Source: a virus. Taken from it: a DNA stretch of 64,000 bases. The position numbers were made by a program, and so were the translations under genes. This document shows positions 1-29,825 of this stretch, piece by piece. The stretch lies in UHGV virus genome UHGV-1370141. One strand, given 5' to 3'. Position 1 is the stretch's first letter. The number at the start of each line of letters is the position of its first letter. Below the pieces are notes generated by a model, which worked only from the letters and a program-made list of their open reading frames with translations, was not told the origin of the DNA and made no database searches.

Positions 1-501
1 TGCTGCCCGAGACTTGCTTTTAATCCTGGCGTGTGCACCGCTTTCACCCCAGTGATAAGCCAATGCAATTTCTGCAATAGTGGGCTTGCGTTTGAGTCGT
101 TTAGTCAACCCCTTTTCTAAATGTTTAACGTAGACGGAAGCCAATAGCACCGCATTACGAGGATTGTACAAATCCGCGTTACGACTAAGTCCGATTTCGT
201 TGCCGTAGAGTTTTAGTAAATTACGCTTTGTGCTCGGTAGCATCTGAACCAGACTGTGCGCTTTAGACGTTCGATTATACGCCTTCGGATTAAACCGCGA
301 TTCCCGATAGATTAGCGTGGTCATCAACTTAGGATCGACGCCCTGCTTTCGGGAGATTTCCACAATCAACGGTTTTACCCGTTCGAAACGGTCTTGAATC
401 ATTTCGAATTCACGATGGTGTTTGGCACTGGGTGCGGATTTGGATGCGTATGCGTTAAACGCGAAAAGTGTTACCAGTAAAAGAAAGAAAATACGAAACA
501 T
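1..501 (-). CDS. Secreted lytic transglycosylase (SLT domain); partial, C-terminus beyond window start
   Basis: Minus-strand ORF with ATG at 501-499, absent from ORF track because it runs off the window; signal peptide MFRIFFLLLVTLFAFNAYA; SLT motif ESRFNPKAY...SKAHSLVQMLPST. Confidence 0.75.
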   Translation of the reverse strand, partial: MFRIFFLLLVTLFAFNAYASKSAPSAKHHREFEMIQDRFERVKPLIVEISRKQGVDPKLMTTLIYRESRFNPKAYNRTSKAHSLVQMLPSTKRNLLKLYGNEIGLSRNADLYNPRNAVLLASVYVKHLEKGLTKRLKRKPTIAEIALAYHWGESGAHARIKSKSRAA

Positions 502-601
502 ACTAGTTCTCCAGTTGGATTTATACATTTCCGTGTTCCGTAGAACGAAATCACGGCGCGGACAGCTGGAACTCCTTTGTTGTGTGCCCTAATGATAATA
601 T

Positions 602-1126
602 CTATTTAAAAAGGTTTGGAATTAAAGGTTTTGCTTCTTGGTAAAGCGTATCGGGTAAATAGAAACGGTAATGTTGTCTCCTCGGTACGAGTTTCTTTTC
701 GATAAACAAAAAGATTTGTTGACGTTCAGCTTTTGTCAACCAACCGTTAGCCATCCCTAACGGCGGTAAAGCCACCCCACCCTCTAAGTTTTCTGCGGCA
801 TCTGCCAACGCGGTGATACCCGCGATAACATAAGAAACCTGGGATTTCAGTTTCCAATGTGTTTTAGTTGGTAAGAGAATGCAGTTTTCCTCGGGATAAA
901 CATACACATTCCCTATTCGTATTTCGTTAGCGAAGCAACGTTCTCGGTAGTCCTGATAAAGCCCAGGATAGCGTTCTCTGCACGCTAAAGCGATACCCCG
1001 ACCCATTGCCCCTACACAATTTATCGTAACGACCTTGAAGCGCTCAGGGGCGTTAAACAGGTCGTTGTCAATATCCGATTCTGGAAGTATCGTTAGCATA
1101 ACGGTCTTACCGAGTGAGGTAAGCAT
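602..1126 (-). CDS. Macro-domain (ADP-ribose binding/processing) protein, putative
   Basis: VVTINCVGAMGRGIALA resembles macro VNAAN..GGGGVDGAI; later CILLPT and ALPPLGMANGW resemble HTVGP and FPAISTGVYG segments. Confidence 0.5.
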   Translation of the reverse strand: MLTSLGKTVMLTILPESDIDNDLFNAPERFKVVTINCVGAMGRGIALACRERYPGLYQDYRERCFANEIRIGNVYVYPEENCILLPTKTHWKLKSQVSYVIAGITALADAAENLEGGVALPPLGMANGWLTKAERQQIFLFIEKKLVPRRQHYRFYLPDTLYQEAKPLIPNLFK

Positions 1127-1199
1127 AATTGATGCACAGGGATAAACCGCGTTCCACCAATCGCCAACTCAACCAAAATCGCTATATACGTTTTAGACA

Positions 1200-1574
1200 T
1201 TAACGATTCCTTTTCACCCATTGACTGATAACGGACTCCAGTCCTTCGTGTTCGAGACCGAGGCGTTTCATGGCAAGGTGTAATTCCAGCGTGTGAGTAA
1301 TCTGTTCTCGGGTTTGGGCGTCGTTCATCTTCTCCCAGACCTTCTCCAGATTAATGTTAAATTTTGACAGCATATACGCTTCGCGACACGCACCACGACG
1401 CCACAAACTCGGTTTAACGAACGGTAATTCGATTTCTGGAATCAGCCACAGCAGTTTATTAACCCGCGTAAGTTCACTACCACCGATTTCGTGACACTGA
1501 TAACAGATTTGTAAGATGTCGCTGTTATCCAGTGGTTCACTAAATAGATACGGGGTTTGGGTTCCTGGTAACAT
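1200..1574 (-). CDS. Hypothetical protein
   Basis: 124-aa ORF; AAGGAG 7 nt upstream of ATG. Confidence 0.55.
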   Translation of the reverse strand: MLPGTQTPYLFSEPLDNSDILQICYQCHEIGGSELTRVNKLLWLIPEIELPFVKPSLWRRGACREAYMLSKFNINLEKVWEKMNDAQTREQITHTLELHLAMKRLGLEHEGLESVISQWVKRNR

Positions 1575-1776
1575 CTGGATTCTCCTTAGGCTCGAAAGGT
1601 GATTCAGGTGGCAGCGTTCCTAACGCACCTTGAATACAGGCTGTCAGTGCAGGTTTACCAAAACACACCTGACCGATCTTACCCATGTTGGGATGCTGGA
1701 GAAATGCTTTTGCGCGTTCGTATTCTTTCCAGCAAATGCTTGTATCCATTCCACCTACACCGAAACTGTTTAACAT
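1540..1776 (-). CDS. Hypothetical small protein
   Basis: 78-aa ORF; AGGAGA RBS; 35-nt overlap with downstream gene. Confidence 0.45.
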   Translation of the reverse strand: MLNSFGVGGMDTSICWKEYERAKAFLQHPNMGKIGQVCFGKPALTACIQGALGTLPPESPFEPKENPDVTRNPNPVSI

Positions 1777-1842
1777 AAGTAGCTCTCCTGACGTAAAATT
1801 CTCACACTCATAGTGAGGAACGTCAAGAGAGCCTTTATTGTT

Positions 1843-2286
1843 TTAGAAAGTTTTGCTGAAATCCACCCATTCTTTATCGTGAGAATAGGTTGCTTTGTAG
1901 CCACGACGAATGAAATACTCTTTCGCTTCTTTGCACTTCGTGTACATCCCAATGGCAATTTCACCGAATGCTTCATCAGCGGCTATCGCTTTGAAGATTT
2001 CTTTCATTACCCCACGCTGACGGTAATCAGGCAGCACGTATAACGAACGAATTTTGAGTACCCCGTTGCGATTACGGTAACTGCAATAACCCACCGCAAC
2101 ATCGTCGATATAAATCAGAACAACACAGTTGCCTTCGATCAGTTGACGCACGTTTAATTTCGGTACAGCGGTTTTGATTTTCAGCATCGTTGCTTGGTGA
2201 TCTAAGTAACGGTAATGAAGTGCGAGTAAATCTTTCGCTTGTTCTTCACCGATTTTAGAAAGTGCGTTCAACAAATAAATTTCCAT
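1843..2286 (-). CDS. GNAT-family N-acetyltransferase
   Basis: 147 aa; acetyl-CoA motif A-like LYVLPDYRQRGV(MKEIFKA). Confidence 0.6.
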   Translation of the reverse strand: MEIYLLNALSKIGEEQAKDLLALHYRYLDHQATMLKIKTAVPKLNVRQLIEGNCVVLIYIDDVAVGYCSYRNRNGVLKIRSLYVLPDYRQRGVMKEIFKAIAADEAFGEIAIGMYTKCKEAKEYFIRRGYKATYSHDKEWVDFSKTF

Positions 2287-2318
2287 TTATCAGACCTTAC
2301 AGACGCAAAAAGATGAAA

Positions 2319-2447
2319 TTAAAACCAACGTCCAATGATAAAAGCGGCAGCGGCGAGAAGCAGTACGGTAATAAAACCCGCACCCCATGTTAGTTCCGCG
2401 TTATATAAAGCGCCGATTGCAGCATTGGTAGTATTGACAACAGTCAT
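2319..2447 (-). CDS. Small hydrophobic peptide (42 aa, one TM helix), putative
   Basis: Own translation MTVVNTTNAAIGALYNAELTWGAGFITVLLLAAAAFIIGRWF; GAGGGAAG RBS before ATG; below ORF-track size cutoff. Confidence 0.3.
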   Translation of the reverse strand: MTVVNTTNAAIGALYNAELTWGAGFITVLLLAAAAFIIGRWF

Positions 2448-2461
2448 AGTTCTTCCCTCGT

Positions 2462-2492
2462 AAAACACCCTCCCAGTTACCCAGGAGGGGGT
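2462..2492 (-). terminator. Possible intrinsic terminator hairpin
   Basis: Inverted repeat CCCTCC...GGAGGG followed by T-run on minus strand. Confidence 0.3.
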
Positions 2493-2498
2493 TCTAAC

Positions 2499-2609
2499 TT
2501 AACTGTGCGTAGAGCCTTTGAAAGCCCATCCGTACTTATTAATCAGCCAGTTGAGAGATTTCCCAATAATCCACAACGACCCAAGTGTTAACAGAATACC
2601 CTCAATCAT
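2499..2609 (-). CDS. Small hydrophobic peptide (36 aa), putative
   Basis: Own translation MIEGILLTLGSLWIIGKSLNWLINKYGWAFKGSTHS; ATGA start/stop overlap with upstream ORF; GGAGGGAAG RBS. Confidence 0.3.
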   Translation of the reverse strand: MIEGILLTLGSLWIIGKSLNWLINKYGWAFKGSTHS

Positions 2610-2806
2610 GACTTCCCTCCAACACACCGCCACTCACATTCGCGTTGGTGCCAAATTGAACCCCAGGTGAGCCTAATCGCGTACGCTAAGACCACCCATA
2701 AAATCGCCGTTATACAAAATAGCACGTACAGAATGGCAACCAGCACCATGACGCTAAACCCTAAAACGCTTAGTAACTGACGCCACCAATCAGTTTGCGT
2801 AGACAA
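2606..2806 (-). CDS. Small membrane protein (66 aa, hydrophobic core)
   Basis: TTG start preceded by AAGGAG; start overlaps ATPase stop by 17 nt; hydrophobic stretch LLSVLGFSVMVLVAILYVLFCITAILWVVLAYAI. Confidence 0.4.
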   Translation of the reverse strand: MSTQTDWWRQLLSVLGFSVMVLVAILYVLFCITAILWVVLAYAIRLTWGSIWHQRECEWRCVGGKS

Positions 2807-5312
2807 TTTTTACTCCTTCGTTGTAAACCGCAGGCAGTGTTACGCCTTCAGGTTCAATAACACAGTATGCGGCTTCGTTAAGTTTTGAATGAATTTCTGC
2901 TTCGTGAGATACCACCAGTAACTGAGAGAACTCACCGGAATTCGCCAGGGTTTTAATAAACCCAACGAGGTTATTTCGGTGTTCTTCATCCATCCCTTCT
3001 GACGGCTCATCCAACAGTAGCGGATACTGATGAAGTTTCAGGGCTTTGTAAGCGGTTAAACGAAACATCAAATTAAAGATGGCTCGCTGCGCTTTCGACC
3101 CTTTCCGCACGTCAGGTACCGGTTCAGGATGGGTTTTTAACTGCACTGGGAACGTGTAGTCTAAGTCACCGTCGGTTAAGTCACACGGCATGACCCGCAT
3201 AGGGTAGGTCCAGACTTGTTCGATATATCGCGTCATCAATTCCGTGATTCTCACGATAGCGTTGTAGAAGTATTTGCGTAGTACCCCTTTCTCGGGCGAG
3301 AACGCTTGAATCATCAGTTTGTTATTGAATTGCTGTGCCTGTAAATCCGATAACTCCTTTTCTAACGCAGTAAGTTGGTTGAGCTCGTTTTCCATCTGAC
3401 GGTACCGTTCCCGTGCTGTGGTGAACGCATCCAACTTGTTTTCTCGGGCGTTTAATAACGTTTCGACCACCGTGTTGGTTAATGTTACCTTAACATCGTT
3501 CTCTAAACGCTCAAAAACCGCATTAAAATTGTCTACAGTGGCTTTAAGTTCGTTTAGATAACAAAAGGTATCATTAGCAACTGCGTGCTCTCTACGGCGC
3601 TCTGAGAGCGTTTCTGTCGCCTTACCCAAACGCTCCTGCTGGAAGGCAATTTTCTGCTGTAGAGCACCATCAACGTTACCTACCGCTGCAACTGCGTTTG
3701 CCCACTCTTTTTCCGCTTTAGCAAAACGGTGTTTCGTTTCGTGGTATTCAATTGCGGAATAAAGTTCACGATCGAACTCTGCACACAAACTGCCAAACTG
3801 ACTGCGGTTATCCGTAAAGACATTCCGCTCCTGGAGACGTTTAAAGAACAAACTCAATACCGGGTCTTTCGAGTATGTTAAAACGATTTCCCGCACTTGG
3901 CGCATGTAATTAACGTCCGACTCTAATTCCGTACGGTCTCGCAACACGGAATCAAGCTGAGTCTGTAACGTATTACGTTGCTCCATTTGTCCACGAATGG
4001 CTTCTTCCAATTCAGGCAAAGAACGACGCACGCCCGGACGGAATTTAAATTGACACTGCGGACAATCAACCTCTGCGGTTTCCAAATAGTGATTCCGTTC
4101 GTGGTTGAGGTTCTGCAATACGTTTTCAACGCGTTGTAGTCGGTCACGCAACCCAGATGAGTTCTGGTCTAAGGTCAACAGTTTCTCTTCCAGTACGTTC
4201 AACCGTTCCGTTGATTTAATAGCATCCAGCGTTGTTCCTAAACGTTGTCCCCAGACACGCGCATCCGTCGCTGCTTTAAGCTGGTCAATGTTAACGGTCT
4301 CCGCAAACAGTTCAGGGAAAAGATGTTCGGTGTCCCACTGCTTTAATAACTCACGCAGTTTTGCAACCGTGTTCTTTAACCCTTCGTGATTCCGCATCAG
4401 GTAATCTTGGCGGGTAGACTCGTCCATCAACAGAGACAAATCTTTGTTTAGCATAGACAGCTCTGTTTCAGCAGAGACCACCGCTTCACGGGCAGTGGCT
4501 TCAACGCGTCGTGCTTCCTCTACCTGTTCTTCCGTAGGTAATCCACCACGGTGTTCCAAGATAGCATTAATCGGTGCTTCGATTTTAAGCAATAGCGATT
4601 GAATCGTTGCCACCGTAACGTCACGATTCAGGCCCGGCAGTTGTTCAATCTGTTTGTTGAGTTCACGTAAATCTGCTTCTAATGCTTTTAACCGTGTTGC
4701 TAACTGCTGACGTTCTTCCTCGTTATCAATCACGCGGGTACGCAACTCTGCAATCTTGCGGCTGGTGATTTCAATACCGCCGTTTAACATCGTCAGGTTT
4801 TTTCGTAAACGTTGATAAAAACCTAACGCGTAAGTTAAGTCTGACGTACTTAAACGGTAGAACCACTTACGACGCAGTTCCGTTCCTGCATCCGTTAAAA
4901 GCACTTCTCCGTTCAGTAACTCTTTAATCTCTTTTGTAATGCCCGTGATTTCTTCTACACGAGAGTTATACACTTTCGCATTACCTTGTTCGACGATTTT
5001 GGTACCCGTCGTCAGGTTCTCGATATCGCAAACCAGTGAGTTGCCTTTACGTGCAACCTTAAATTTGTAACGATGGTCGTTAACCAAACAGATGTTGGTG
5101 TAAGAACCCCCGTCACGGAATTCGGATTTCGAAGGTGCGATAGGTAGAAACACGGACAGTAAGCTGGTCTTACCGCAGCCGTTACCACCGAGGATAATAG
5201 TGGTTGGGGAATGGATAGTAAAATCGAAGGTTTCGATTTCGTGTAGTCCCATCCCGGTAAACCCTTTAAGTACAATACGTTCAACTTTTAACATGTCCAC
5301 CTCCATATTCAC
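2790..5312 (-). CDS. SbcC/Rad50-like ATPase (Walker A, coiled coil with CxxC zinc-hook-like motif, Walker B)
   Basis: N-terminal GGNGCGKTS; long coiled-coil region with central CPQC; C-terminal LLLDEPSEGMD and VVSHEAE. Confidence 0.65.
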   Translation of the reverse strand: MNMEVDMLKVERIVLKGFTGMGLHEIETFDFTIHSPTTIILGGNGCGKTSLLSVFLPIAPSKSEFRDGGSYTNICLVNDHRYKFKVARKGNSLVCDIENLTTGTKIVEQGNAKVYNSRVEEITGITKEIKELLNGEVLLTDAGTELRRKWFYRLSTSDLTYALGFYQRLRKNLTMLNGGIEITSRKIAELRTRVIDNEEERQQLATRLKALEADLRELNKQIEQLPGLNRDVTVATIQSLLLKIEAPINAILEHRGGLPTEEQVEEARRVEATAREAVVSAETELSMLNKDLSLLMDESTRQDYLMRNHEGLKNTVAKLRELLKQWDTEHLFPELFAETVNIDQLKAATDARVWGQRLGTTLDAIKSTERLNVLEEKLLTLDQNSSGLRDRLQRVENVLQNLNHERNHYLETAEVDCPQCQFKFRPGVRRSLPELEEAIRGQMEQRNTLQTQLDSVLRDRTELESDVNYMRQVREIVLTYSKDPVLSLFFKRLQERNVFTDNRSQFGSLCAEFDRELYSAIEYHETKHRFAKAEKEWANAVAAVGNVDGALQQKIAFQQERLGKATETLSERRREHAVANDTFCYLNELKATVDNFNAVFERLENDVKVTLTNTVVETLLNARENKLDAFTTARERYRQMENELNQLTALEKELSDLQAQQFNNKLMIQAFSPEKGVLRKYFYNAIVRITELMTRYIEQVWTYPMRVMPCDLTDGDLDYTFPVQLKTHPEPVPDVRKGSKAQRAIFNLMFRLTAYKALKLHQYPLLLDEPSEGMDEEHRNNLVGFIKTLANSGEFSQLLVVSHEAEIHSKLNEAAYCVIEPEGVTLPAVYNEGVKIVYAN

Positions 5313-5378
5313 GGAGCGTGGTGTAAAAAGAAAAAAAATAAAAGAGAAGGGAGAGAACCCGAAGGTTCTCTCGTGGTA

Positions 5379-5987
5379 TTACGGCTGGTAGAGTTTGTAA
5401 CCCATCTCCTGCCAGTTTTGGATATTTTTCGATTGCTCAACCCAAGCCTGGCCTGCGTCGGACGCAACAACTTCCATCGTCAGTAAACAAATCAGATTGG
5501 TAACGGGAACACATTTGCCTGGTGTAACGTCATCCAAATACACCGGATACAGATAAGGTGATTTGATGCTTTGATACGGATAGGAATAATGCGTTCCTAC
5601 AACCCAACCTTCTTCCACCGGGCAGAGGTTAAAGGTACGCGTTTCTGGGATTTCCCCTTCAGAGATCCAATTTACAACGTCGGCCTTAATACGGCCGTTG
5701 TCGATGTAGTAGAACACAACACGTTGCGGGATACCTGCACCCCCGGTAGGGTCTATTGCTTCCAGCGCTTTAAACGGTGTATTATTTAGCGTAGTACGGT
5801 TATCTAACGCGTACATCAGCTTTTCGTAAGCGGTTGGCGTTTTACGTTCGAAATACGCTTTCAAACGCGGGTACGCTAAGAACCCTTCGACTTCTTCCTC
5901 CATTAAATCGATGAATAACGGAGAATGTGGATTAGCTTCGTTTAGTCGCATCGCTTCGATAAAACGAACCAAAGTAATTTCGTTCAT
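5379..5987 (-). CDS. Hypothetical protein
   Basis: 202-aa ORF, ATG start. Confidence 0.55.
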   Translation of the reverse strand: MNEITLVRFIEAMRLNEANPHSPLFIDLMEEEVEGFLAYPRLKAYFERKTPTAYEKLMYALDNRTTLNNTPFKALEAIDPTGGAGIPQRVVFYYIDNGRIKADVVNWISEGEIPETRTFNLCPVEEGWVVGTHYSYPYQSIKSPYLYPVYLDDVTPGKCVPVTNLICLLTMEVVASDAGQAWVEQSKNIQNWQEMGYKLYQP

Positions 5988-6003
5988 GTTTCAGTTTCCT
6001 TTG

Positions 6004-6034
6004 GCAAAAAAGAAGCCCCGTACACAGCGGGGCC
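6004..6034 (-). terminator. Intrinsic terminator
   Basis: Hairpin GCCCCG-tacacag-CGGGGC then T-run on minus strand, just downstream of 6042..6518. Confidence 0.6.
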
Positions 6035-6041
6035 GGGCTAA

Positions 6042-6518
6042 TCACAGCCCTAAGTGCGTGAGTGATAAGATAGGCTGTGAGACACCCTGGATAGTAGCGT
6101 GGGAACGATACATTTCGGCGTTGGTTGAGAATACCTCGTTAGCGATAATGCATTCACCCGTCTCTAAAGATAGGAGATAAATGTAATCGCTCCATACGCT
6201 TTGTACCAAGACCCACTCTAAGGATGGACCACAGTCTGATGTTGCTTGCAAATAGTGGAAATAAGGACGTATCGCATCCACCGCCGCATTAAAGCGACGA
6301 TGATAAATTCGAGTTAAGTCAAACGACCAAATTGTTTCCAGGTCAATAGGGCGTAAAGTACGCACGGTTTTGATAATAGTTTCCTGGTCGTTGTGTCGTG
6401 CAGCATCAGCAATCAATAGCAGTTTCCAAGCTACCGTTAAGTTGTGGCGAATATACTCAGGCTTAGCCGTCAGTTCGTGATGGAATTGGGCTGCTTGATA
6501 AACATTAGATAAACGCAT
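6042..6518 (-). CDS. Hypothetical protein
   Basis: 158-aa ORF. Confidence 0.55.
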   Translation of the reverse strand: MRLSNVYQAAQFHHELTAKPEYIRHNLTVAWKLLLIADAARHNDQETIIKTVRTLRPIDLETIWSFDLTRIYHRRFNAAVDAIRPYFHYLQATSDCGPSLEWVLVQSVWSDYIYLLSLETGECIIANEVFSTNAEMYRSHATIQGVSQPILSLTHLGL

Positions 6519-6545
6519 TTTAATTCTCCTTTAGGTAAAACAAGT

Positions 6546-6586
6546 CGTAAAAAGGACCCCGGACGAATCGGAACGTACCGGGGCCA
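6546..6586 (-). terminator. Intrinsic terminator
   Basis: GC-rich hairpin CCCCGGACG...CGTACCGGGG then TTTTT on minus strand, downstream of 6597..6986. Confidence 0.55.
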
Positions 6587-6596
6587 AGACTACACA

Positions 6597-6986
6597 TCAG
6601 TAATCTAATTCGATAGCACCTAACATCTCACCGCGTTCTTCGATGACGATAAGATGGCGGTCACGTGATTTGCTTTTCGCAAGCGTTAGTACAACTGTGG
6701 GGTCACACGTTTTGGTCGTTACAGGAAGCACCTCTTTTGCTACAGAGTCGAGTACGAAATAATAACCCGCAGGGCAGGTTGTCCCACCATCTGCTTTTAC
6801 GAGTATATAGCGTCCATCTGCGCCAACTTCTTGGCACTCGCCTGCATCGCCTTCGCAGACTTCAAAACCCGGTGGGTTGTAGTGATAGTCTGTGTTCGTT
6901 GCCGGGGTAAGTAATAAATCGTCGATGTGTGTAGAAGCCATAACTCCGATTGAGAAAAACGCCAACAAAGCGCAGATAAGACGCAT
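6597..6986 (-). CDS. Small secreted protein (signal peptide)
   Basis: MRLICALLAFFSIGVMAST N-terminus; 6 Cys in mature part. Confidence 0.55.
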   Translation of the reverse strand: MRLICALLAFFSIGVMASTHIDDLLLTPATNTDYHYNPPGFEVCEGDAGECQEVGADGRYILVKADGGTTCPAGYYFVLDSVAKEVLPVTTKTCDPTVVLTLAKSKSRDRHLIVIEERGEMLGAIELDY

Positions 6987-6996
6987 GGTTTACTCC

Positions 6997-7407
6997 TTAG
7001 ATTTTAAGTTTGTCCTGTGCTACAACGATTGGTGCTCCAGAGGTGTCGATAACACCTACAGTCGGCACACCATTTTTGATTTTGAAGAACGGTTTGTTTT
7101 CGCCTGAACACAATTGGTTGTCTTTGTATTCGATTTTCTGTGCTTTCCAAGTTTCCAGGTTGAGTACCGACATAGGGCTGTCGTAGCACCAGGCACCACC
7201 TTGCTCAACAACGAAAACATATCTGTTACCTTTGTATTCAAACAAATTCTTTGTCTGGCAATACAGACCGTCAATTTCTGTGCAGTAGAATTCATCGGTA
7301 CTGTTGACGTATTTGATACCCGCCGGTAGCTTTATTGTTTTTGCTGCTACGTTAAGAGAGAACAGAACAGTTACAGCAACGAGTAAAGTTTTGATAAACG
7401 TTTTCAT
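6997..7407 (-). CDS. Small secreted protein (signal peptide)
   Basis: MKTFIKTLLVAVTVLFSLNVAA then KT; Cys-containing mature region. Confidence 0.55.
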   Translation of the reverse strand: MKTFIKTLLVAVTVLFSLNVAAKTIKLPAGIKYVNSTDEFYCTEIDGLYCQTKNLFEYKGNRYVFVVEQGGAWCYDSPMSVLNLETWKAQKIEYKDNQLCSGENKPFFKIKNGVPTVGVIDTSGAPIVVAQDKLKI

Positions 7408-7422
7408 GACAGACTCCTTAAA

Positions 7423-7905
7423 TTAATTAACCGTAGCTACGTATTTCTTAACCAGATAGGCGAATTCATTAACGCCGATATCGCCAAACCAAACCAGGTA
7501 ACCTGGGTCGACGTTGTAATAGTAACCTACCACGACATGGGTCTGCGGGTTATAAAGCGTCGTGATGTATTCCCAACCACAAGCATTGCTTTTGCAAGCG
7601 GTAGATTCAAGCCAGATTTTGCCGTTGATTTGCACGGGAATAACATCGCCGCCAGGACCATCCATCACGCCATCTTTACCGAATAACCCGTCTAGTCCGA
7701 CAGGTTTCAACGCTTTATCGATTGCGGCTTTATAAGTCGCATCGTCGGTATAGAGTGTGTTGATATCAGGACATGCACTGGGTTGTTCAGCCCAGGCTTC
7801 CGGGTTACAACTAAGTGCTTGTTTTACACTAGCCGCTTCTGCGTTAAAGGTAAAGCCCGTGAACAGAACCGCCACGAAGAACATCAGGGTATGTAAACGT
7901 TTCAT
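7423..7905 (-). CDS. Small secreted protein (signal peptide)
   Basis: MKRLHTLMFFVAVLFTGFTFNAEA signal; contains ACKSNACG loop. Confidence 0.55.
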   Translation of the reverse strand: MKRLHTLMFFVAVLFTGFTFNAEAASVKQALSCNPEAWAEQPSACPDINTLYTDDATYKAAIDKALKPVGLDGLFGKDGVMDGPGGDVIPVQINGKIWLESTACKSNACGWEYITTLYNPQTHVVVGYYYNVDPGYLVWFGDIGVNEFAYLVKKYVATVN

Positions 7906-7923
7906 TGTAAATTCTCCATTAAA

Positions 7924-8310
7924 TTATTCAGCGCTACGATTTAAAGTAATACGACCGATCAGTTCTGCATTATGGAAGAAGTCCACAGCAGTATAGTTAC
8001 CGACCTCTAACGGATGAATACTGACTGACATGACTTTTGGTTGTTCGCAGGCGATATCCGTCAGACGTTGGTAGACTTGTGCACGAGTGTCAGCAATGAG
8101 TAATCCGGTACACGATTCACCACGCACTAAACGATAAACTTGCAGTTTACCGAAACTGCGCATTAACGTAGGCGACTCATCCGGGTTGATAATGGGTGAA
8201 TCAGGAGCCGGTTCGTAATGGCGGACGTCCGAATCGCCGAAAGCATAAGTGGCCGTAATACCGACTGCACAGAAAATAATGATGGTATAAAGTATAGTTC
8301 TGATATTCAT
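7924..8310 (-). CDS. Small secreted protein (signal peptide)
   Basis: ATG at 8310 (ORF track uses GTG at 8316); MNIRTILYTIIIFCAVGITATYAFG signal. Confidence 0.5.
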   Translation of the reverse strand: MNIRTILYTIIIFCAVGITATYAFGDSDVRHYEPAPDSPIINPDESPTLMRSFGKLQVYRLVRGESCTGLLIADTRAQVYQRLTDIACEQPKVMSVSIHPLEVGNYTAVDFFHNAELIGRITLNRSAE

Positions 8311-8338
8311 TTTCACGCACTCTAAAAAAGATTAATAC

Positions 8339-8800
8339 TTATTTGTTAGGACGGGTGTGTCCACAGTTCTGGAAGAAAGTTTCAGACAGACGTTCGCCTT
8401 CTACGGTAAAGTTAGCGGCTTCGTTTCCGTTGATATTCACACTGAAAGTTTTGGCATTGCCGATAGCATTAACGAAAGCCACCCAAGCGAGTTCTGCTTT
8501 GTCACTACCATCCACCGTAGGGATGTTGTAAGTTTTGCCATTTACGACAATATCCAGCGTGTTGTCTTCAGCGTTAGTTGCACCTACAGGTTCCCCGTAA
8601 TACCAAACCATGCGACCGTAAAATTTGCGATTCGCGGTTTCAGTGTCACAGTTGATAGACAGTCCGTTTCCGGTGGTGTCTTCGATTTCGTAAACAGCTT
8701 GACCTGGGTTCTGTAGTTGTTCCCAACTATTGATTGCAGCGTGTGCAGTATTGAATCCGATTGCGAAAAGGCCGATTAAAAAGGAAGTGAAGATTTTCAT
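8339..8800 (-). CDS. Small secreted protein (signal peptide)
   Basis: MKIFTSFLIGLFAIGFNTAHA signal; GAGGAG RBS. Confidence 0.55.
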   Translation of the reverse strand: MKIFTSFLIGLFAIGFNTAHAAINSWEQLQNPGQAVYEIEDTTGNGLSINCDTETANRKFYGRMVWYYGEPVGATNAEDNTLDIVVNGKTYNIPTVDGSDKAELAWVAFVNAIGNAKTFSVNINGNEAANFTVEGERLSETFFQNCGHTRPNK

Positions 8801-8845
8801 TGTTTTGCTCCTCGTGGGGTTAACAAGTAAAAGAGTTAATCTTAA

Positions 8846-15985: not shown

Positions 15986-18900
15986 ATGGCTGTCGTCCTA
16001 GACCCACACTTCAAAGAACCGGGGAATAAAATAACCGGTGAAGCGGTCGCCGTCATTGGTACGAAGTACCGAATGTTGGTACCTGCCCACGCCCCTTTTT
16101 TCACCACATCCCTGGTGGTCAAGAGCGGCGGCAAAATACTGACCTTAGGCGACGATTACGTTATTACACACCCGTACGAGACCGGTATGTTGCGCACAGC
16201 CTATCTCGTGCACGGGATGATTTGGATTGTTAACGACAAATACAAATCGAATTTCACGGTAGATTACCACGCCGTAGGTTGCGGTGAGGCAACCCAAGAA
16301 CAGATTACCGCAGAACGCGAACTCAATAAAGATAAATACCCGTCTGCGTGTCAATGGGATACCGTTATCGGCGACGTTTACTTTCCACCGGTCGACATTC
16401 AGTTCGACTGGGAAAACTGGAAAGGTGAACTGGAATTAATGCAGACCATTGCAGGCTTAGGTGATTCGTTAGGTAACGTGGTGAATCGGGTAGACCCGAT
16501 TGCACGTAACACGTTAGATATCGAGCATCGCGCTAATGGTACGGTTAGCACGTCTGAACAGTACGCAACGTACGACAACAAAGGTGGGTATACTTACAAT
16601 ACCGCTAAACGTCGTTTCTCCGTTACGTACAAAACCACCACGTTAAATGAATATTCCCTGTCGATGAAATACCGTATTCCGGCTATTTTTCCGAATATGG
16701 GGAGTATTAATCCGAACGAACAAATCGATTGGATGTTGTGCTATGCGAATGGTGGCGCAAGTATCCTTCGTCTCCAATTAAAACAACGTAAAATCAGCCT
16801 ACGACTGACGGTCGCGTTAGGCAGTGGTTCGACCGATTATGATTATACGTTAATCAACGGTTTGACCGATGACGAATTAAAAGGCGAATTAACGTTTAGC
16901 GTTGTCCGTCAACCGGGTAACGGTGTATACGTTATCGAGGTGACGACTAACAAACAGTCCATGGACTATACGTTTAACGTCGACACACCGCCAGACGAAT
17001 TCTCAGCAGGTTACAGCAAAACGGATGTTGCGAAGTGGCTGAAATACAAAACCAACGTTAACTTAAACTGGTGGGCGGCTGAAAACGATTACGCTCAATT
17101 CCTTGCGTTACCTGGTGCGCCAGAAGCAGACGTAAGTAACGACGTTTATCAGTTAATCGTTAAGTACCATCAGTTAGTAGAGCAACTCTATCGCAACGCA
17201 CCTGCACACGAACACGTTACACGTAAGGACAACCCGCACAGCGACACGTGGGGACCGATTCGTGCGTTAGAATTAAACGGCATTGCGTCCGACGCAGCGT
17301 TAACCTACGGGAAAACCAAGCGACAGTTAACGGACTACGTTAACGCTAAATACCCAACACAGGCAACGCTAACCACCCAGAGAAAACTGCTTCGAGAATC
17401 GGCGAGCAAGAACGTTAACGGCACGATTACAGCGCTCCCTGGCTTTACGTCATTTACTACTGAAGTCGACCCAGTGTCGATGTCGAAATACGTTAGTCGG
17501 CAATTTAGCGAATATTACGTTTCGAACGGAATTGGATACCACGGAGCACTTCGCTACGCTGGAACTAAAAACGGGTTCTCATGTTATTTTAACGGTGTTC
17601 CCGCTGATTTACAAGACATCGACTTTATTGTAACGGGTACAAGAGTTGCAGGCGATAATTCAGCGATCGGCGTGGCTCAGATGCGATTCTACGAGAATCC
17701 GGGTACCGAGTCCGGTAAGTATGTTGAGCTGGAAGGTTCGCTCTCCGGAGATCGCCTTTCCATCCAAGTATCGCTTGGCGGATATGGTGTCGGTACAGAC
17801 CCACAAGTCCGTTATATCTCCAAAGCACCTGATCCGGTGGTGCCTGCTGGCGATTTCACATTACGTTTCCAGATGAAACGAACCGGTAATCTTTTTGACG
17901 TTATCGTTACGGTGAACGGGAAAACCTACAGTGCGCGTGTCAATTTCGTCAATATGGATGCCGAGTTAGAAGCGCTGGAAAACCGTTATCACTTCAAGAG
18001 CTTTATTAATAACGTTGCAGATAGGGTCAGTATCCAATCTGCTCACAACAGAAACTACGTTACCATCAAAAAGGCTCCTGACGTTGTTGACGAAAGACGT
18101 TTAGGCGCTCAATTCGTTGTTGATCCGAAGTCCATTAAGTTTATCGGTCAAGGTTCTACCGATGTTCATGCGGGTAACAACCCTGTTACGTTACAGGCAG
18201 GCGATAACCAGCTTGTGCTATACCCCGATGACCGTGGACTGTTGTGGCGTGGTAAGAAACTCTTAGACCCCACTACGGTAGCGCCGTATTTGCCGGGTAA
18301 TACCGCAGGCGGTACAGGTCTGTTCTACGGTGCATCTACAGCTACAGTGGAACTTACTGGTAGCGGGATTAAAGCATCGCCGTTTGTCGCAACGTTTATC
18401 CTTCCGGTTGCCGAAGACGTCACGACGTTAGCCTGCTGGCAGTTAACGGATGAATTCGGTACGGCTGAAAACCTTGCAGCTACACCCGCGTTAATTGAAA
18501 AACTGGACGCAGAGTTTACCGGTAAGTTAGTTGCTGCCAAGTCGTACATCAACGACATGCAGCTTACCAGTTCGATTACTATCGACAAAATTACCTTTGG
18601 TTTAGGTAACGTTGCGAATACCCCGGACCTCGATTTGCCGATTTCTGTTGCACAACAGACTGAGTTAGACAAATACTCACCGAAGGTTCACCAACACCCG
18701 TCTTCTGTGTTCGGTGTTGAAAACGCAGACACCACGAAACGGGGTCTGATTAAATTCGGTCTGGAAGTGGATGATACCACTTTAGCACTCGATGGTAGTG
18801 TGGTGATGGCGCAGACTTCCCAGATTGAAAATTTGGAGAATACCGTCGGCGGGGTTGACTCGGGTGCGCGCGTTGACATTATTCGCTTTGGTAAGTCCGG

Positions 18901-20311
18901 TAACGACTTAATTGACGTTACGGTTAAAGACAATATCCTGGTGTCACTTCCTGCTTCCACGTATTTCGTTGGCGGCGAAACGTACGACGTGCCGTTGATG
19001 ACGGTTAACGTTACCGAACGTTTCCCGAACCCGAAAACAGTAATTTACGCAGGGATTTTTGTTGATATCGTTGACAACAAAGCGAAGTACATTATCCACG
19101 ACAGCTATAACCAAGCTGAGACGGATACCATGACGCGTGTGGGAAGACTCGTTGTTAATGATCTTTCCGAAGTGGATGTAGTGGAGTTGCGTAACGTGAC
19201 ACGGTTAGGCGATTTCCGTGAGCTGAAAGACCACGTCGCCAATGACAACGCACACATTCACCGCTCCGCGTCACGTGCAGTGCTGGGGTTAAGCAATTTA
19301 ACAGTAGGTGCGCCCTGCTGGGCTTCTGGACTTCAAGCGGTTGTGCGTGGCGAGGCAGATTGGCGCTATGTGGTTGGTGGTGGATATAAAGCACTCGATG
19401 GTGTGAAATACGACCAGCTTGCGTCGAAGTGGGTGTTTGATGCGAAAGGGGTAAGTGATAATGTTCACGGGTTTATCCACAACCTGTTCCCAGTATTTAA
19501 CAATGCGGGGATGCGAGTCAGTTGGGAAACCGAAAGCAACGCAAAAACCGGTACGGTGCTAGAAACCATCCTGGGTTGCTGGAAAAACACCGATGGCGAG
19601 TTTATGCGGTTGTCGTTACTTATCACCCGTGGTTACCGGTTAACTGACAGTAACGGTGAATATTGTTACGCGGGGTTCGGTTTGAACTTCAGTAACGGGA
19701 AATCGGTAGTGTTAGGTTTCACGCCAACGAAACGTGTTACAGCTGCACCATGGAGCACATTACAACCTGACGTAACGTTTAGTCACACCCGTGGTGCAAA
19801 CAACGCAATAACGTTTAATGCAACACTGACCTTAGCTGGTACTGCGTATACCATTGTGGTGTATTTGTCTGCGACGGATAAATACGTAAGCTGTACAGCA
19901 GCAGGGGGAACTACGCAGAAAATCTCACTGAGTGACCGTTTAACCGGGTTCAACCTCGCACCTATCGTTAACGATCCGTATACCCCTATTTACTACGGAT
20001 TAGGGGGACTTTATGAGGACGAAGTGCGTGCTAATATCCGTTCTACGGCAGACAGCATAATCGGGAACAAACTCTACGGTACGCTGTTGGATTATATCAG
20101 CAACTACTCCTCGTTAAATCGTGTACGCGTCGTGGAATTGGCCGGGACAAGCTCAGACCCTGAAACGCTTAATGCGCTAGTGGCGACTGAGTTTAATAAC
20201 AACCTGGCGGATTACGCTGCGTTACCGATACCTCCTTATCTTAACAAGGAGCGCGTAATGTCGTTTATCGACACCAACAATTTAGTGCAGGCGGTAATCA
20301 TTCGCGATTAA
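15986..20311 (+). CDS. Giant tail fiber / baseplate-associated fiber protein (1441 aa)
   Basis: TAGGAG RBS; internal phage-fiber-type repeat ...FGLGNVANTPDLDLPISVAQQTELDK...; size and context. Confidence 0.6.
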   Translation: MAVVLDPHFKEPGNKITGEAVAVIGTKYRMLVPAHAPFFTTSLVVKSGGKILTLGDDYVITHPYETGMLRTAYLVHGMIWIVNDKYKSNFTVDYHAVGCGEATQEQITAERELNKDKYPSACQWDTVIGDVYFPPVDIQFDWENWKGELELMQTIAGLGDSLGNVVNRVDPIARNTLDIEHRANGTVSTSEQYATYDNKGGYTYNTAKRRFSVTYKTTTLNEYSLSMKYRIPAIFPNMGSINPNEQIDWMLCYANGGASILRLQLKQRKISLRLTVALGSGSTDYDYTLINGLTDDELKGELTFSVVRQPGNGVYVIEVTTNKQSMDYTFNVDTPPDEFSAGYSKTDVAKWLKYKTNVNLNWWAAENDYAQFLALPGAPEADVSNDVYQLIVKYHQLVEQLYRNAPAHEHVTRKDNPHSDTWGPIRALELNGIASDAALTYGKTKRQLTDYVNAKYPTQATLTTQRKLLRESASKNVNGTITALPGFTSFTTEVDPVSMSKYVSRQFSEYYVSNGIGYHGALRYAGTKNGFSCYFNGVPADLQDIDFIVTGTRVAGDNSAIGVAQMRFYENPGTESGKYVELEGSLSGDRLSIQVSLGGYGVGTDPQVRYISKAPDPVVPAGDFTLRFQMKRTGNLFDVIVTVNGKTYSARVNFVNMDAELEALENRYHFKSFINNVADRVSIQSAHNRNYVTIKKAPDVVDERRLGAQFVVDPKSIKFIGQGSTDVHAGNNPVTLQAGDNQLVLYPDDRGLLWRGKKLLDPTTVAPYLPGNTAGGTGLFYGASTATVELTGSGIKASPFVATFILPVAEDVTTLACWQLTDEFGTAENLAATPALIEKLDAEFTGKLVAAKSYINDMQLTSSITIDKITFGLGNVANTPDLDLPISVAQQTELDKYSPKVHQHPSSVFGVENADTTKRGLIKFGLEVDDTTLALDGSVVMAQTSQIENLENTVGGVDSGARVDIIRFGKSGNDLIDVTVKDNILVSLPASTYFVGGETYDVPLMTVNVTERFPNPKTVIYAGIFVDIVDNKAKYIIHDSYNQAETDTMTRVGRLVVNDLSEVDVVELRNVTRLGDFRELKDHVANDNAHIHRSASRAVLGLSNLTVGAPCWASGLQAVVRGEADWRYVVGGGYKALDGVKYDQLASKWVFDAKGVSDNVHGFIHNLFPVFNNAGMRVSWETESNAKTGTVLETILGCWKNTDGEFMRLSLLITRGYRLTDSNGEYCYAGFGLNFSNGKSVVLGFTPTKRVTAAPWSTLQPDVTFSHTRGANNAITFNATLTLAGTAYTIVVYLSATDKYVSCTAAGGTTQKISLSDRLTGFNLAPIVNDPYTPIYYGLGGLYEDEVRANIRSTADSIIGNKLYGTLLDYISNYSSLNRVRVVELAGTSSDPETLNALVATEFNNNLADYAALPIPPYLNKERVMSFIDTNNLVQAVIIRD

Positions 20312-20324
20312 GGAGAATTTTTTG

Positions 20325-23300
20325 ATGAAAGCGTATCCTTACGATCCTCGGGGGACGAAAACCGAGAATCACTTCTTAGAGGAGCGTATCATCGGGTCAG
20401 AAAACAACAACGACCGGGTGGTGATTTTAGACCATCGCCCGTTCTTTGAAGACTTAGTCGTCAGACAACCAGGTTCAACCACCCCACTGAGCCGTGGGGT
20501 GGACTACGAACTGCAATATCAGCTGACGGAACTGGATGACTCGGTAGCAGCCAACGTGTATTGTGGGGTACACCTTATCAACCCATCCATTAAAGGTATT
20601 GTAACCTTTGAAGGACAAATGCTCGGCGGTACGTTCTACGACCCGTTCGTTGACATGCTCGACGAGTTGGTGAAATATTTGAATAACCCAGTCAGTGCAG
20701 ACTGGCTGTTGTTAGACGGTAGACCGTCATTATACCCAGCTACGCCTGCGGCAACGTCCTGGGCGGATTTGCTGAACAAAAAATACTTAGCGTCAGCGAT
20801 TCACGATATTGAGTTGAAAACCGATGACGCTAACCAGCTAATTAAAGATAAATTAGCCGAAGTTAAAGCGCTAGTGACTGCGTTGGGGAAAGAAATTGAA
20901 GCGTTTAACTACCCAGCACATATCGCCGCGACGAACCCGCACGAAACCACGAGCGCACAAATTAACGCCCATCCCGTTAACCTGAAAACACCTGACACCT
21001 TTATGGCGTACGGGTTAAAGTTGAAAGCGTTAACGGATGAACTGAAAGCGTTTCGTTTACCACAGTCAGTTATTGACACGTATATCTCCCACTGGATTTC
21101 TTCGGAAGTACGGGGCGTGTTTAACTGTACGGTGTCTGGAAACCGCGCACAATTCCGTTCGAAAAACGGTGAGTCAGAAATCATTTTTGCGAATGATGGC
21201 TTTACGTTAAAATCCAACGGTTCTGTGGTATTAGCGGTAGGGCATCTGGAAGGCACAGGTGCGGGGCGTTACATTAACTGGCGTGCGGGTAAAAACACGT
21301 TACGCATCGAGTCAACCGGTGACGCTTTAGGGATGAACAAACTCACCCTGAACGGTAACCCGTTGTTGACCACCACAGCGCTGATGGAGTATCAGCAAGA
21401 CCCTGATGCTGGCGGGAGTGGCGGTAGCGATCCTGATGACTCCAAAGTGTATATCGAAGGCCGTAACGGGATTAGTTTTACCGGTAAAGGTTCTCGTGCC
21501 GATCCCATCGTGGGGACTATCGACCCGACGAAAGCGACCACCGCTGAAAAAGGTGTTGTTAAGCTTAAAACCGGTAAAGGCACAGAAACGGTTGGGGTTG
21601 CTGCAACACCTGCGTCATTAACGCCGTATTCAACCGACTTATCAGGGTACGTGACTAAAACGACCATGATTAACGGTAAGCCGATGAACGACGGTTCCAG
21701 GACAATCACGAAAGCTGACCTGGGATTAGGGCAAGCGGATAACACCGCAGACCTTGACAAACCGTTGTCTACTGCACTGAATGCTTCGGTTAGTGGTTTA
21801 GCAGATGTTGGCCACCATCACGACTGGTCAGAGTTAGGCATTTATAAAGCCTCGCAGACGGTTTACGGTATCGGTCGTTACGCAACTAACCAGAATGGCT
21901 TAGTTGAAAACCGTGCAGTGGTACCGAACATCCTAAAAGAGCTTTCAGCACGTTTAGATGTGGTTGCTGCCGCAATTGCGAATGCGAAAGAAGGTACGGT
22001 AACTGATTTTGCTGCTGTGAAAGGTGCAGACTGGCGTTTTAATAGCCAGGGTACGGCAATCTCCGTTCAGGATTTGAAATATTTCTATTTGCTAAATGGT
22101 GAAAAGGCCGACGGTGTCGTTACCGGCGCGATTGACCTGCAAACCACCCCGATGTTTAACTGGTTCTCACCGAACAACCAGCTTGAGCTGACTTGGCCTA
22201 CGGGGAAAGTTAGTAGGGGTACTGGGATTAGTTGGGATGGAATTGTTGATCCTCCAACAATGGGGTTTCAGTCAGTTCCGGTAGGTAAAACCGCTATACA
22301 GATGGGTGACCAGTCAGTTGTTACGGTGCTGGCAAAAACACGGGTCAAAGCTTATCAGAATAGGCTGTTTGTTTACGCCGCTGGCGGTGGAATGATAACC
22401 GTTTATGTAAATGGTGTTGTGGCTGCTACCGGTGAATCTCCGTTGTTAATGAACTACACAACGTCGTCAGATGTTGAAAATTACACAATCGCTGTTAAAG
22501 CAGAATGTAGCGATACGGCTAAGTCCGCAGCGGTACAGTTTGAAGTTTACGATGGCGATTACCCTGTTTACTTCAGTGGCCCTGAAACACACGTAGAGCT
22601 TCTCCAGGAGTTTGTTACCACGCACGTAGGGATTCGTCACTATTTGTACGTTAACATGCTCACAGGCTCTCTATATTCGCGTGCTGAACCGATTCAGAGC
22701 ATCGCAGTTGATCCTGAACGTGGTTATATCGGTTACGTTGATATTGTTGCTGGTGAGAATTACGCGAATAAAACGGTAGGGTTCGAAACCACGTTTGATT
22801 TCGGGAAAAGTGCCGAGGTTAGTGAACACATCGACACGCGTAAAGCGCACGGACTCAGTTCTGTGGACTGGGCGTTAACGGATAACCCACGTTTGCCGTT
22901 ATTAAACCGTGCTATTGCCGAACCGAGAGCGTGTATCTTTAGGAAAGCGTTAGCAACCGGTACAGGCGATGTTTTCCATCTTGTCAGTCGTGGTCTTTAT
23001 ACTTACGCACACAACCAAAACGTGAAGTCCAGTCTTCAGTACGTTGTGATTCCTGAAGGTGCTACACCGTATTGCTGGTTTACACCGTTTAACCCGAAAG
23101 AAAACAACGCACCGACTTTCGAAGGTTCGTTTGCGTTTGACGTTGACGACGTCGGTGGGACGCAAGCCCTTGCTGCTGCGCCGGATTTGGTTCTATGCTC
23201 GTCAACGCAAGGGAGTAGCGTTAAACGTCGCTATCTGCGCATTGACCTAACTGCCAAAGCGTGTAAGCTGGGGATTGGTTCCCGTTCAGATTCTGCCGTT

Positions 23301-24506: not shown

Positions 24507-24542
24507 GACAGGCTGCCTGCGGGCAGTTGTGTGTCCGTAGGT

Positions 24543-24581
24543 AACCCCTCCCTGTAATGGGGAGGGGTATCCATTTTATTT
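24543..24581 (+). terminator. Intrinsic terminator/attenuator between fiber genes
   Basis: Hairpin ACCCCTCCC-tgtaat-GGGGAGGGGT followed by TTTTATTT. Confidence 0.55.
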
Positions 24582-24601
24582 AAAAAGTAGGAGTCTTTAC
24601 G

Positions 24602-29785: not shown

Positions 29786-29825
29786 TGACTCGGGACAAGG
29801 ATGTCTCGAATAAAGGAGAGTGGCC

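Follow-up and report, generated by a model that had tools for sequence, protein, structure and literature searches.

The jumbo phages related to phiKZ carry both subunits of an SbcCD-type nuclease but not side by side. In Salmonella phage SPN3US, gp186 (the homolog of phiKZ ORF165) is the SbcC subunit, essential by amber mutation, and gp27 was named SbcD (Thomas et al. 2016, PMC5105663). The sbcC and sbcD genes are "drastically separated" in SPN3US, phiKZ, and relatives (PMC5105663), the same split is stated for pSal-SNUABM-04 (PMC7823757), and wide separation of nuclease and ATPase is a published hallmark of phiKZ-like genomes. SbcC and SbcD are practically universal in jumbo phages (PMC7824862). 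In phiKZ, the core gene orf165 responds to antisense knock-down and has no transposon insertions (PMC12571901, PMC12676376), which makes it essential or relevant to fitness. Next to SPN3US gp186 is gp187, a 63-amino-acid (aa) TMHMM-positive protein that has been compared with T4 gp47.1 (PMC5105663). Here we describe an SbcC/Rad50-like ATPase gene, and three small open reading frames (ORFs) downstream of it, in a 64-kb stretch of the virus genome UHGV-1370141 (the window). The ATPase is, with high confidence, the phage's own SbcC/Rad50 subunit, an ortholog of SPN3US gp186 and phiKZ orf165, with its SbcD partner encoded far off.

The ORF listing gives the ATPase gene as 2790-5312, minus strand, with 840 aa counted from a GTG. 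This GTG, at 5312, has no Shine-Dalgarno (SD) site, and an ATG at 5294 is preceded by GGAGGTG. Because an SD site is present only at the ATG, homolog alignments begin at the 5294 methionine, and metagenome gene callers choose the same start, we take the real product to be the 834-aa protein encoded by 2790-5294. An earlier interpretation made from the letters of the DNA (the sequence-only reading) gave a length of 840 aa, which describes the ORF from the GTG; the true product is the shorter one. The features of the gene are as follows.

2790-5294, minus strand: SbcC/Rad50-family ABC ATPase, 834 aa, assigned from PHROG 77, the Rad50 profile, the structural model, and orthology

5163-5189, minus strand: Walker A motif (P-loop) GGNGCGKTS, residues 36-44; G36, N38, G39, G41, and K42 invariant in 16 homologs

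4053-4064, minus strand: predicted zinc hook C-P-Q-C, residues 411-414, at the coiled-coil apex; C411, P412, and C414 invariant in 16 homologs

2901-3104, minus strand: motifs of the C-terminal ATPase lobe; S733, D762, E763, D769, S796, and H797 invariant, Q736 nearly so (90% or more)

3081-3104, minus strand: degenerate signature-like motif GSKAQ (S733-K-A-Q736)

2988-3026, minus strand: Walker B and D-loop YPLLLDEPSEGMD; LLLDEP, residues 759-764, and D769 invariant in 16 homologs

2901-2918, minus strand: H-loop LVVSHE; VVSH, residues 794-797, invariant in 16 homologs

The protein matched PHROG family 77, the "SbcC-like subunit of palindrome specific endonuclease," at 2.4e-92. When a profile of the 16-sequence family alignment (A1) was compared with the PDB, the top five matches were all Rad50, from 2.8e-10 (P. 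furiosus Rad50) to 3e-9; the best non-Rad50 matches were ABC proteins, with ABC-transporter nucleotide-binding domains at about 1e-5 and the first of all non-Rad50 matches at 1.5e-5. An AlphaFold2 model with a mean predicted local distance difference test (pLDDT) score of 83 shows an N-terminal β/α lobe, an ascending helix of some 270 residues (138-405), a short hairpin bearing the CPQC, a descending helix (426-664), and a C-terminal lobe, with pLDDT in the helices mostly 75-90. In a Foldseek search of the PDB with this model, the best match was Rad50 of the C. thermophilum MRN complex (8e-18), followed by Smc5/6, condensin, MukB, Lamassu LmuB, and JetC; the structural alignments to Rad50-type proteins carry only 9-17% sequence identity. 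The predicted architecture is that of Rad50/SbcC, with a bipartite ABC head, a long antiparallel coiled coil, and a CxxC apex hook in place of a hinge. The sequence-only reading had proposed the SMC/Rad50/SbcC architecture, and its Walker A, mid-protein CPQC, Walker B, and H-loop are all confirmed, with Rad50 the best match of both profile and Foldseek searches.

CPQC sits at relative position 0.49 of the 834-aa protein, in a short apex loop (about 20 residues) that joins the ascending and descending helices, and it is predicted to bind zinc. Its cysteines and proline are invariant even in a homolog at 22% identity. A C-P-x-C is found at relative position 0.49-0.51 in SPN3US, Asesino, a phiKZ-type phage, PS119XW, FLC6, PDCC-1, MJ359, and Special G, and also in T4 gp46. 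Many database records label the protein "SMC domain-containing protein" or "Chromosome partition protein Smc," and the role of an SMC/condensin-like organizer would be compaction or segregation of phage DNA, not the processing of its ends. SMC_N is indeed the best Pfam match, and Smc5/6, condensin, and MukB come just below Rad50 in Foldseek. However, the hinge domain is absent (the Pfam scan of the ATPase gave no SMC_hinge match) and the apex is instead the small loop with its invariant CxxC, a Rad50/SbcC hallmark. The sequence profile also favors Rad50, family scans of some flanking genes revealed no kleisin-like neighbor, no kite genes lie nearby, and the family strictly co-occurs with an Mre11/SbcD homolog. 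We regard a role as chromosome organizer as very improbable.

The sequence-only reading noted that no Mre11/SbcD-like nuclease is encoded next to the ATPase, and this is borne out on a larger scale: tblastn and phmmer searches with Asesino SbcD found no homolog beside SbcC or anywhere in the 64-kb window (best E = 0.15). The absence of an adjacent nuclease is explained by the way in which phiKZ-like genomes scatter functional modules. In tblastn searches, SbcC homologs were found in 290 phage records across phiKZ-like genera and SbcD homologs in 291, with an essentially identical breakdown by genus. SbcC occurs as a single copy across the records of phiKZ-like phages and is a member of a core gene family of such (Chimalliviridae-type) jumbo phages. 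In Erwinia phage Asesino, SbcD (gp44, annotated as the SbcCD D subunit) lies at 21.7 kb and SbcC (gp207) at 170.9 kb. In two near-complete IMG/VR genomes (225.0 and 220.8 kb), whose SbcC is 87% identical to that of the window, the two genes are both present, at distances of about 90 and 130 kb. A 151.6-kb contig encoding proteins 94-98% identical to window proteins carries SbcD, and in the phiKZ-like phage SL2 SbcC and SbcD are at about 115-117 kb and 228-230 kb, respectively. When SbcD was sought on the very contigs with an identical SbcC, exact look-ups of P0003 and P0004, the representatives of their clusters, each led to one contig other than these.

The distant partner itself resembles a nuclease of the expected family. 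The only structures matched by the SbcD-family profile (A2) are those of Mre11/SbcD; the match to T. maritima Mre11 (8.7e-7) spans nearly the full length. D22, H24, D58, H101, H180, H212, and H214, Asp and His residues of a kind typical for Mre11 phosphoesterase motifs, are invariant or nearly so. Gene order at the SbcD locus matches between Asesino and metagenome contigs. An SbcD encoded elsewhere, in conserved synteny, which the sequence-only reading had named as an observation that would speak against it, is thus present in Asesino, in the near-complete relatives, and in the near-identical contig; the small ORFs, its other such point had they proved untranslated, look like real genes.

The sequence-only reading had raised, as an alternative, an anti-defense or exclusion module; in such a case the ATPase would be an orphan, part of an anti-defense, abortive-infection, or exclusion module (similar to Lamassu LmuB, OLD/AbiL, or PtuA) in which the three membrane peptides act as effectors. 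Some observations point in this direction: no nuclease gene is found nearby or within 64 kb, PADLOC reported LmuB (2.8e-17), mad3 (9e-12), and weak AbiLi, AriA, and PtuA hits, LmuB structures are among the Foldseek matches, and the small hydrophobic ORFs are coupled to the ATPase gene. However, the match to the SbcC family is stronger by 75 orders of magnitude, and the LmuB, AbiL, and PtuA matches reflect the common SMC/ABC fold or the P-loop only. When the three small ORFs and seven flanking genes were scanned with PADLOC, none matched a partner component such as LmuA or LmuC, a Toprim/OLD nuclease domain, or the HNH protein PtuB, the sole flanking match being DarG. The peptides are absent beside SbcC in six other phiKZ-like clades (phiKZ, PS119XW, FLC6, PDCC-1, MJ359, and Special G), and because they are confined to one sub-clade of SbcC-bearing phages they cannot be general effectors of the ATPase. 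The setting is a lytic jumbo-phage core region rather than a host defense context, and the gene is single-copy, co-occurs with SbcD, and is essential on permissive hosts in SPN3US and phiKZ (PMC5105663, PMC12676376), as a core replication/recombination gene would be. The orphan anti-defense interpretation is therefore largely refuted, and we give it hardly any weight. The other option offered by the sequence-only reading, a recombination or repair ATPase, agrees with PHROG 77 and with orthology to the essential SPN3US gp186.

Several observations weigh against the assignment to a phage SbcCD. The Pfam SMC_N match scores 35.1 bits, below the gathering cutoff of 40, and Metallophos on Asesino SbcD scores 18.5, below its cutoff of 21.5; NCBIfam gave only sub-threshold Mre11/SbcD and generic ABC matches. 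Since Pfam alone was not decisive, the comparison of family profiles with the PDB was needed. The SbcD partner is seen in close relatives and not in this very molecule, of which the 64-kb window lacks it. The signature motif is degenerate, S-K-A-Q where S-G-G-Q/E is canonical, and a conserved Q-loop glutamine is not evident in the expected region (LLTDAGTELRRKW) of the 16-homolog alignment, in which R141 and W144 are invariant instead. With a degenerate signature and no evident Q-loop glutamine, regulation of the ATPase may differ from that of canonical Rad50. By analogy with the family, phage SbcC and SbcD would be expected to form a complex and to cleave DNA ends and hairpins in an ATP-dependent manner.

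A mechanism can be outlined on the pattern of the Rad50/SbcC family. Two SbcC protomers would meet tip to tip through their antiparallel coiled coils of ~270 residues, with a shared zinc ion held by the C411-P-Q-C414 hooks. Upon ATP binding the bipartite ABC heads would engage and clamp DNA ends, which a dimer of the phage SbcD/Mre11 phosphoesterase, encoded some 100-150 kb away in the same genome, would then cut. Such cuts would process ends, hairpins, and stalled forks and thereby feed recombination-dependent replication and concatemer maintenance, as is the case for T4 gp46/gp47.

Downstream of SbcC are three small ORFs, two of them chained to it, and a hairpin lies on either side of the chained genes.

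2606-2806, minus strand: gene for a 66-aa membrane protein, TTG start, SD AAGGAG; phrog_16515 (5.3e-6), ortholog of SPN3US gp187 and Asesino gp208

2499-2609, minus strand: gene for a 36-aa peptide, ATG start, SD GGAGG; phrog_13448 (4.7e-13)

2319-2447, minus strand: gene for a 42-aa peptide, ATG start, with a predicted C-terminal transmembrane (TM) helix (residues ~19-39); ortholog of SPN3US gp189

5351-5372, minus strand: terminator-like hairpin, 9-bp stem then a T-rich tract (terminator scan; fold -15.2 kcal/mol, z = -4.3)

2468-2489, minus strand: terminator-like hairpin with a 9-bp stem, separating the 36-aa ORF from the 42-aa ORF (terminator scan; fold -21.1 kcal/mol, z = -2.3)

SbcC and the 66-aa ORF share 17 nucleotides (nt) at the SbcC stop, and the ATG of the 36-aa ORF overlaps the stop of the 66-aa ORF as ATGA, so that both small genes would be translationally coupled to SbcC. 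The first hairpin, in the gap that separates the SbcC start from the upstream gene (5379-5987), is likely the 5' boundary of the SbcC transcription unit. The second is kept at the same place, about 300 nt past the SbcC stop, in L015 and L019, relatives at 87% identity, with a changed stem sequence (stem letters CCCTCCTGG/CTGGGAGGG against ATACCCTC/GAGGGTAT between the window and L015/L019). Its retention with other stem letters points to an RNA structure under selection, which could be a terminator or an element for processing or stability. The triad of SbcC, 66-aa, and 36-aa ORFs is thus bracketed by hairpins at 5372-5351 and 2489-2468, and the two overlaps together with these bounding hairpins argue that the small genes are co-expressed with SbcC.

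The sequence-only reading described three tiny membrane ORFs, each with its own ribosome-binding site. All three are present with an SD-like sequence 5-9 nt upstream, and two are clearly hydrophobic; the 36-aa peptide is marginal. By hydropathy, the 66-aa protein combines an apolar run of 34 residues (KD19 2.93) with a C-terminal tail that is basic, a membrane-grade stretch is seen in the 42-aa peptide (KD19 2.15), and the 36-aa peptide, with a KD19 of 1.5, is borderline for a TM helix. Longer frames are listed for two of them, 2499-2633 (44 aa from GTG) and 2319-2468 (49 aa from GTG).

Conservation argues that these are genes. Because tblastn matched only the 36-aa peptide, with matches confined to SPN3US-like phages, orthology of the small ORFs rests on position and alignment; the 66-aa and 42-aa queries, which are short and hydrophobic, gave no tblastn matches. 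Every SPN3US-like lineage examined has positional orthologs of the 66-aa and 36-aa ORFs, even where SbcC identity falls to 51%, and since they are kept over this range the small ORFs are not chance ORFs. The 66-aa orthologs carry LYxxFC...CEWR motifs, and the 36-aa orthologs carry LxLGxLWLIGKxLNWxIK..WAF in ten lineages. The distance between the start of the 66-aa ORF and the SbcC stop is no more than about 17 nt in any of these SPN3US-like lineages, among them Machina-like phages whose SbcC is 51-53% identical. An ATG set for the 4-nt ATGA overlap also occurs in SPN3US and Machina-like phages, but not in L015, L019, or Asesino. The 66-aa family consists of two subgroups: the window/SPN3US and Machina types share 16-22% identity and are linked by position and the ATGA junction, not by sequence. 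Orthologs of the 42-aa ORF are found in L015, L019, and SPN3US (gp189) and are absent from Asesino. Relatives hold further mini-TM genes, making up a variable cassette of three to six genes that is seen in the SPN3US-like clade only.

Selection on the small ORFs was estimated against the 87%-identity relatives. Nonsynonymous divergence (pN) is 0.21-0.26 and synonymous divergence (pS) 0.38-0.77 over the three ORFs (66-aa ORF, pN 0.26 and pS 0.58-0.60; 42-aa ORF, pN 0.23-0.24 and pS 0.64-0.77), and pN for SbcC is 0.09. This pattern indicates purifying selection that is weaker than on SbcC. Synonymous sites are near saturation, or saturated in several comparisons, so that pN and pS rather than dN/dS are given and the estimate is rough. 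From the reading frames, motifs, and positions that are kept, and from a pN lower than pS, we predict that all three are genuine genes. Annotation has followed them unevenly. Metagenome gene callers miss the TTG-start 66-aa ORF and call the 42-aa ORF, and the 36-aa ORF is unannotated in the GenBank records of SPN3US (L037, about 5581-5685) and Asesino (L002, about 8695-8805). For the 66-aa and 36-aa mini-genes, which are conserved, the gaps are systematic.

The chain of overlaps, the position of the 66-aa start kept across SPN3US-like lineages, and the hairpins bounding the triad could mean that the 66-aa and 36-aa peptides are dedicated SbcCD partners that tether the complex to the membrane or regulate it. 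T4 offers a parallel in gp47.1, a hydrophobic protein of 46 aa encoded by a gene that runs into the start of gene 47; an anchor role has been raised for it (PMC5105663). However, that role is itself a mere suggestion, no similarity to gp47.1 could be seen by eye, and SbcC works without a coupled peptide in the six other phiKZ-like clades listed above. Furthermore, small membrane genes are common amid replication genes without a functional link, such as T4 imm between genes 42 and 43. We consider dedicated partnership unlikely. The more specific proposal, in which the peptides are SbcCD cofactors of the SPN3US-like clade that tether or gate the nuclease at the membrane, is doubtful at best; example tasks could be host-DNA degradation or the processing of incoming DNA outside the phage replication compartment. 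If true, it would describe a lineage-specific, membrane-linked form of Mre11-Rad50.

Alternatively, the small ORFs could have nothing to do with SbcC and instead encode holins, antiholins, or other lysis-timing peptides of a nearby lysis region. The 66-aa protein is holin-like in its shortness, its apolar segment of 27-34 residues, and the charges of its C-terminal tail, and the copy number of the mini-TM genes varies, as is often true of lysis accessory genes. In contigs with an identical SbcC, and in Asesino, SPN3US, and Huxley, an SLT-type endolysin gene is found about 2.3 kb downstream on the same strand. However, the endolysin is five genes off in those contigs and seven to nine genes off in Huxley, Asesino, and SPN3US, with the GNAT and macro-domain genes in between. 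Coupling to a replication/recombination gene would be unexpected for a late lysis gene, and PHROGs, Pfam, and NCBIfam yielded no holin family match. A lysis function is, in our estimate, quite unlikely. Most likely, the small ORFs encode accessory membrane proteins that ride on the SbcC transcript and are not effectors required by the ATPase. Of the roles considered for them, host-membrane takeover or exclusion ranks first, although at less than even odds.

The window derives from an uncultured phiKZ-like jumbo phage of the SPN3US/Asesino type (SPN3US/Erskinevirus group). Its flanks code for giant paralogous virion proteins, tail fibers, a radical-SAM protein, and a macro-domain protein, and gene order at the ATPase is the same as in Erwinia phages Huxley and Asesino and Salmonella phage SPN3US. 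The closest cultured relative of the ATPase is that of Asesino, at 69% identity. An identical 834-aa ATPase occurs on many metagenome contigs of up to 238.7 kb, and a megablast search of window positions 1-8000 against GenBank phages found no near-identical cultured phage, only a 425-bp patch at 72% in Machina-like phages. The source phage is therefore a common uncultured member of its group.

Several neighboring genes deserve mention. Adjoining the small-ORF cassette downstream is a GNAT acetyltransferase (1843-2286, minus strand; Pfam Acetyltransf_1, 2e-8; phrog_3810), which is kept in Huxley, the window, and metagenome relatives. A macro-domain protein (602-1126, minus strand) matches the PADLOC DarG model at 4.6e-31 and carries an Appr-1-p processing label in relatives. 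It is similar to the antitoxin domain of DarTG, which removes ADP-ribose, and could serve as phage counter-defense against DNA ADP-ribosylation; the match is unrelated to the ATPase question. Just upstream of the SbcC unit, 6597-8800 on the minus strand holds five successive small ORFs (129, 136, 160, 130, and 153 aa) with hydrophobic, signal-peptide-like N termini, an apparent cluster of genes for proteins predicted to be secreted or periplasmic. The 153-aa member has a precomputed PF27224 (YfjT) match in related contigs, and the number of members differs between strains.

Farther away, three giant paralogous virion structural proteins (1441, 1394, and 1727 aa) and a 401-aa protein are encoded on the plus strand at 15986-31025 and have a phrog_2163 N-terminal module in common; they may represent the paralog family to which SPN3US gp168 belongs (PMC5105663). 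A radical-SAM domain protein (34933-36255, plus strand; phrog_1802, 3.5e-115) lies inside the virion/tail gene region. At 52032-56513, on the minus strand, is a 1493-aa tail-fiber protein of repeated modules that matches 59 PHROG families and whose C terminus resembles the distal subunit of T4-type long tail fibers.

The SbcC gene finding has already been described for orthologs, and the 66-aa ORF is in the literature as gp187. The importance of the present results is mostly one of annotation. The proper label for the ATPase is SbcC/Rad50, partner of a distant SbcD, rather than "SMC domain protein," "chromosome partition protein," or an orphan or defense-like ATPase. A by-product is the recognition of the conserved 66-aa and 36-aa ORFs, which have been missed or inconsistently annotated. 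Their conserved coupling to an essential gene makes them inexpensive, well-defined targets for the amber, antisense oligonucleotide, and transposon sequencing tools available for SPN3US and phiKZ-type phages.

Among known systems, Lamassu LmuB shares the superfamily fold, and with it the PADLOC (2.8e-17) and Foldseek matches. It differs in that the window has no LmuA or LmuC partners in the flanking-gene scan and the ATPase is a core gene with an Mre11 partner and a far better SbcC profile match. E. coli SbcCD and the archaeal and eukaryotic Mre11-Rad50 complexes resemble the window protein in their bipartite ABC head, their antiparallel coiled coil, and a zinc hook of the CxxC type, and the SbcD partner profile matches T. 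maritima Mre11 and SbcD. Unlike those systems, the window gene stands outside an operon with its nuclease, has an SKAQ signature and no recognizable Q-loop glutamine, and shares very low identity with them.

T4 gp46/gp47 is likewise a Rad50/Mre11 pair devoted to recombination-dependent replication, with a CPTC hook at its midpoint and a tiny hydrophobic gene, 47.1 (46 aa), that overlaps one of the two genes. However, the T4 genes are clustered (47.1-47-46.2-46.1-46), and gp46 has 560 aa and a much shorter coiled coil. The small TM gene of T4 is attached to the nuclease gene, whereas those of the window are attached to the ATPase gene, and the peptides show no similarity by eye. phiKZ orf165 is closer, a full-length homolog at about 25% identity (the protein of phiKZ-like PA02 has 830 aa) with CPSC at its midpoint and SbcD elsewhere; in contrast to the window SbcC, it is not followed by a translationally coupled small membrane ORF.

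SPN3US is more similar again. The lineage of the window differs from it in being uncultured, in having three mini-TM genes, and in lacking the 67-86-aa two-TM protein and the 35-aa "...QGWF" peptide of SPN3US and Asesino. Nevertheless, SPN3US gp186 is about 58% identical to the window ATPase over its full length (836 versus 834 aa), with the same CPQC hook and ATPase motifs. Its gene also sits in a matching context, with a small TM ORF overlapping the SbcC stop, then further mini-TM ORFs, a macro-domain gene, and an endolysin, and with sbcD far off.

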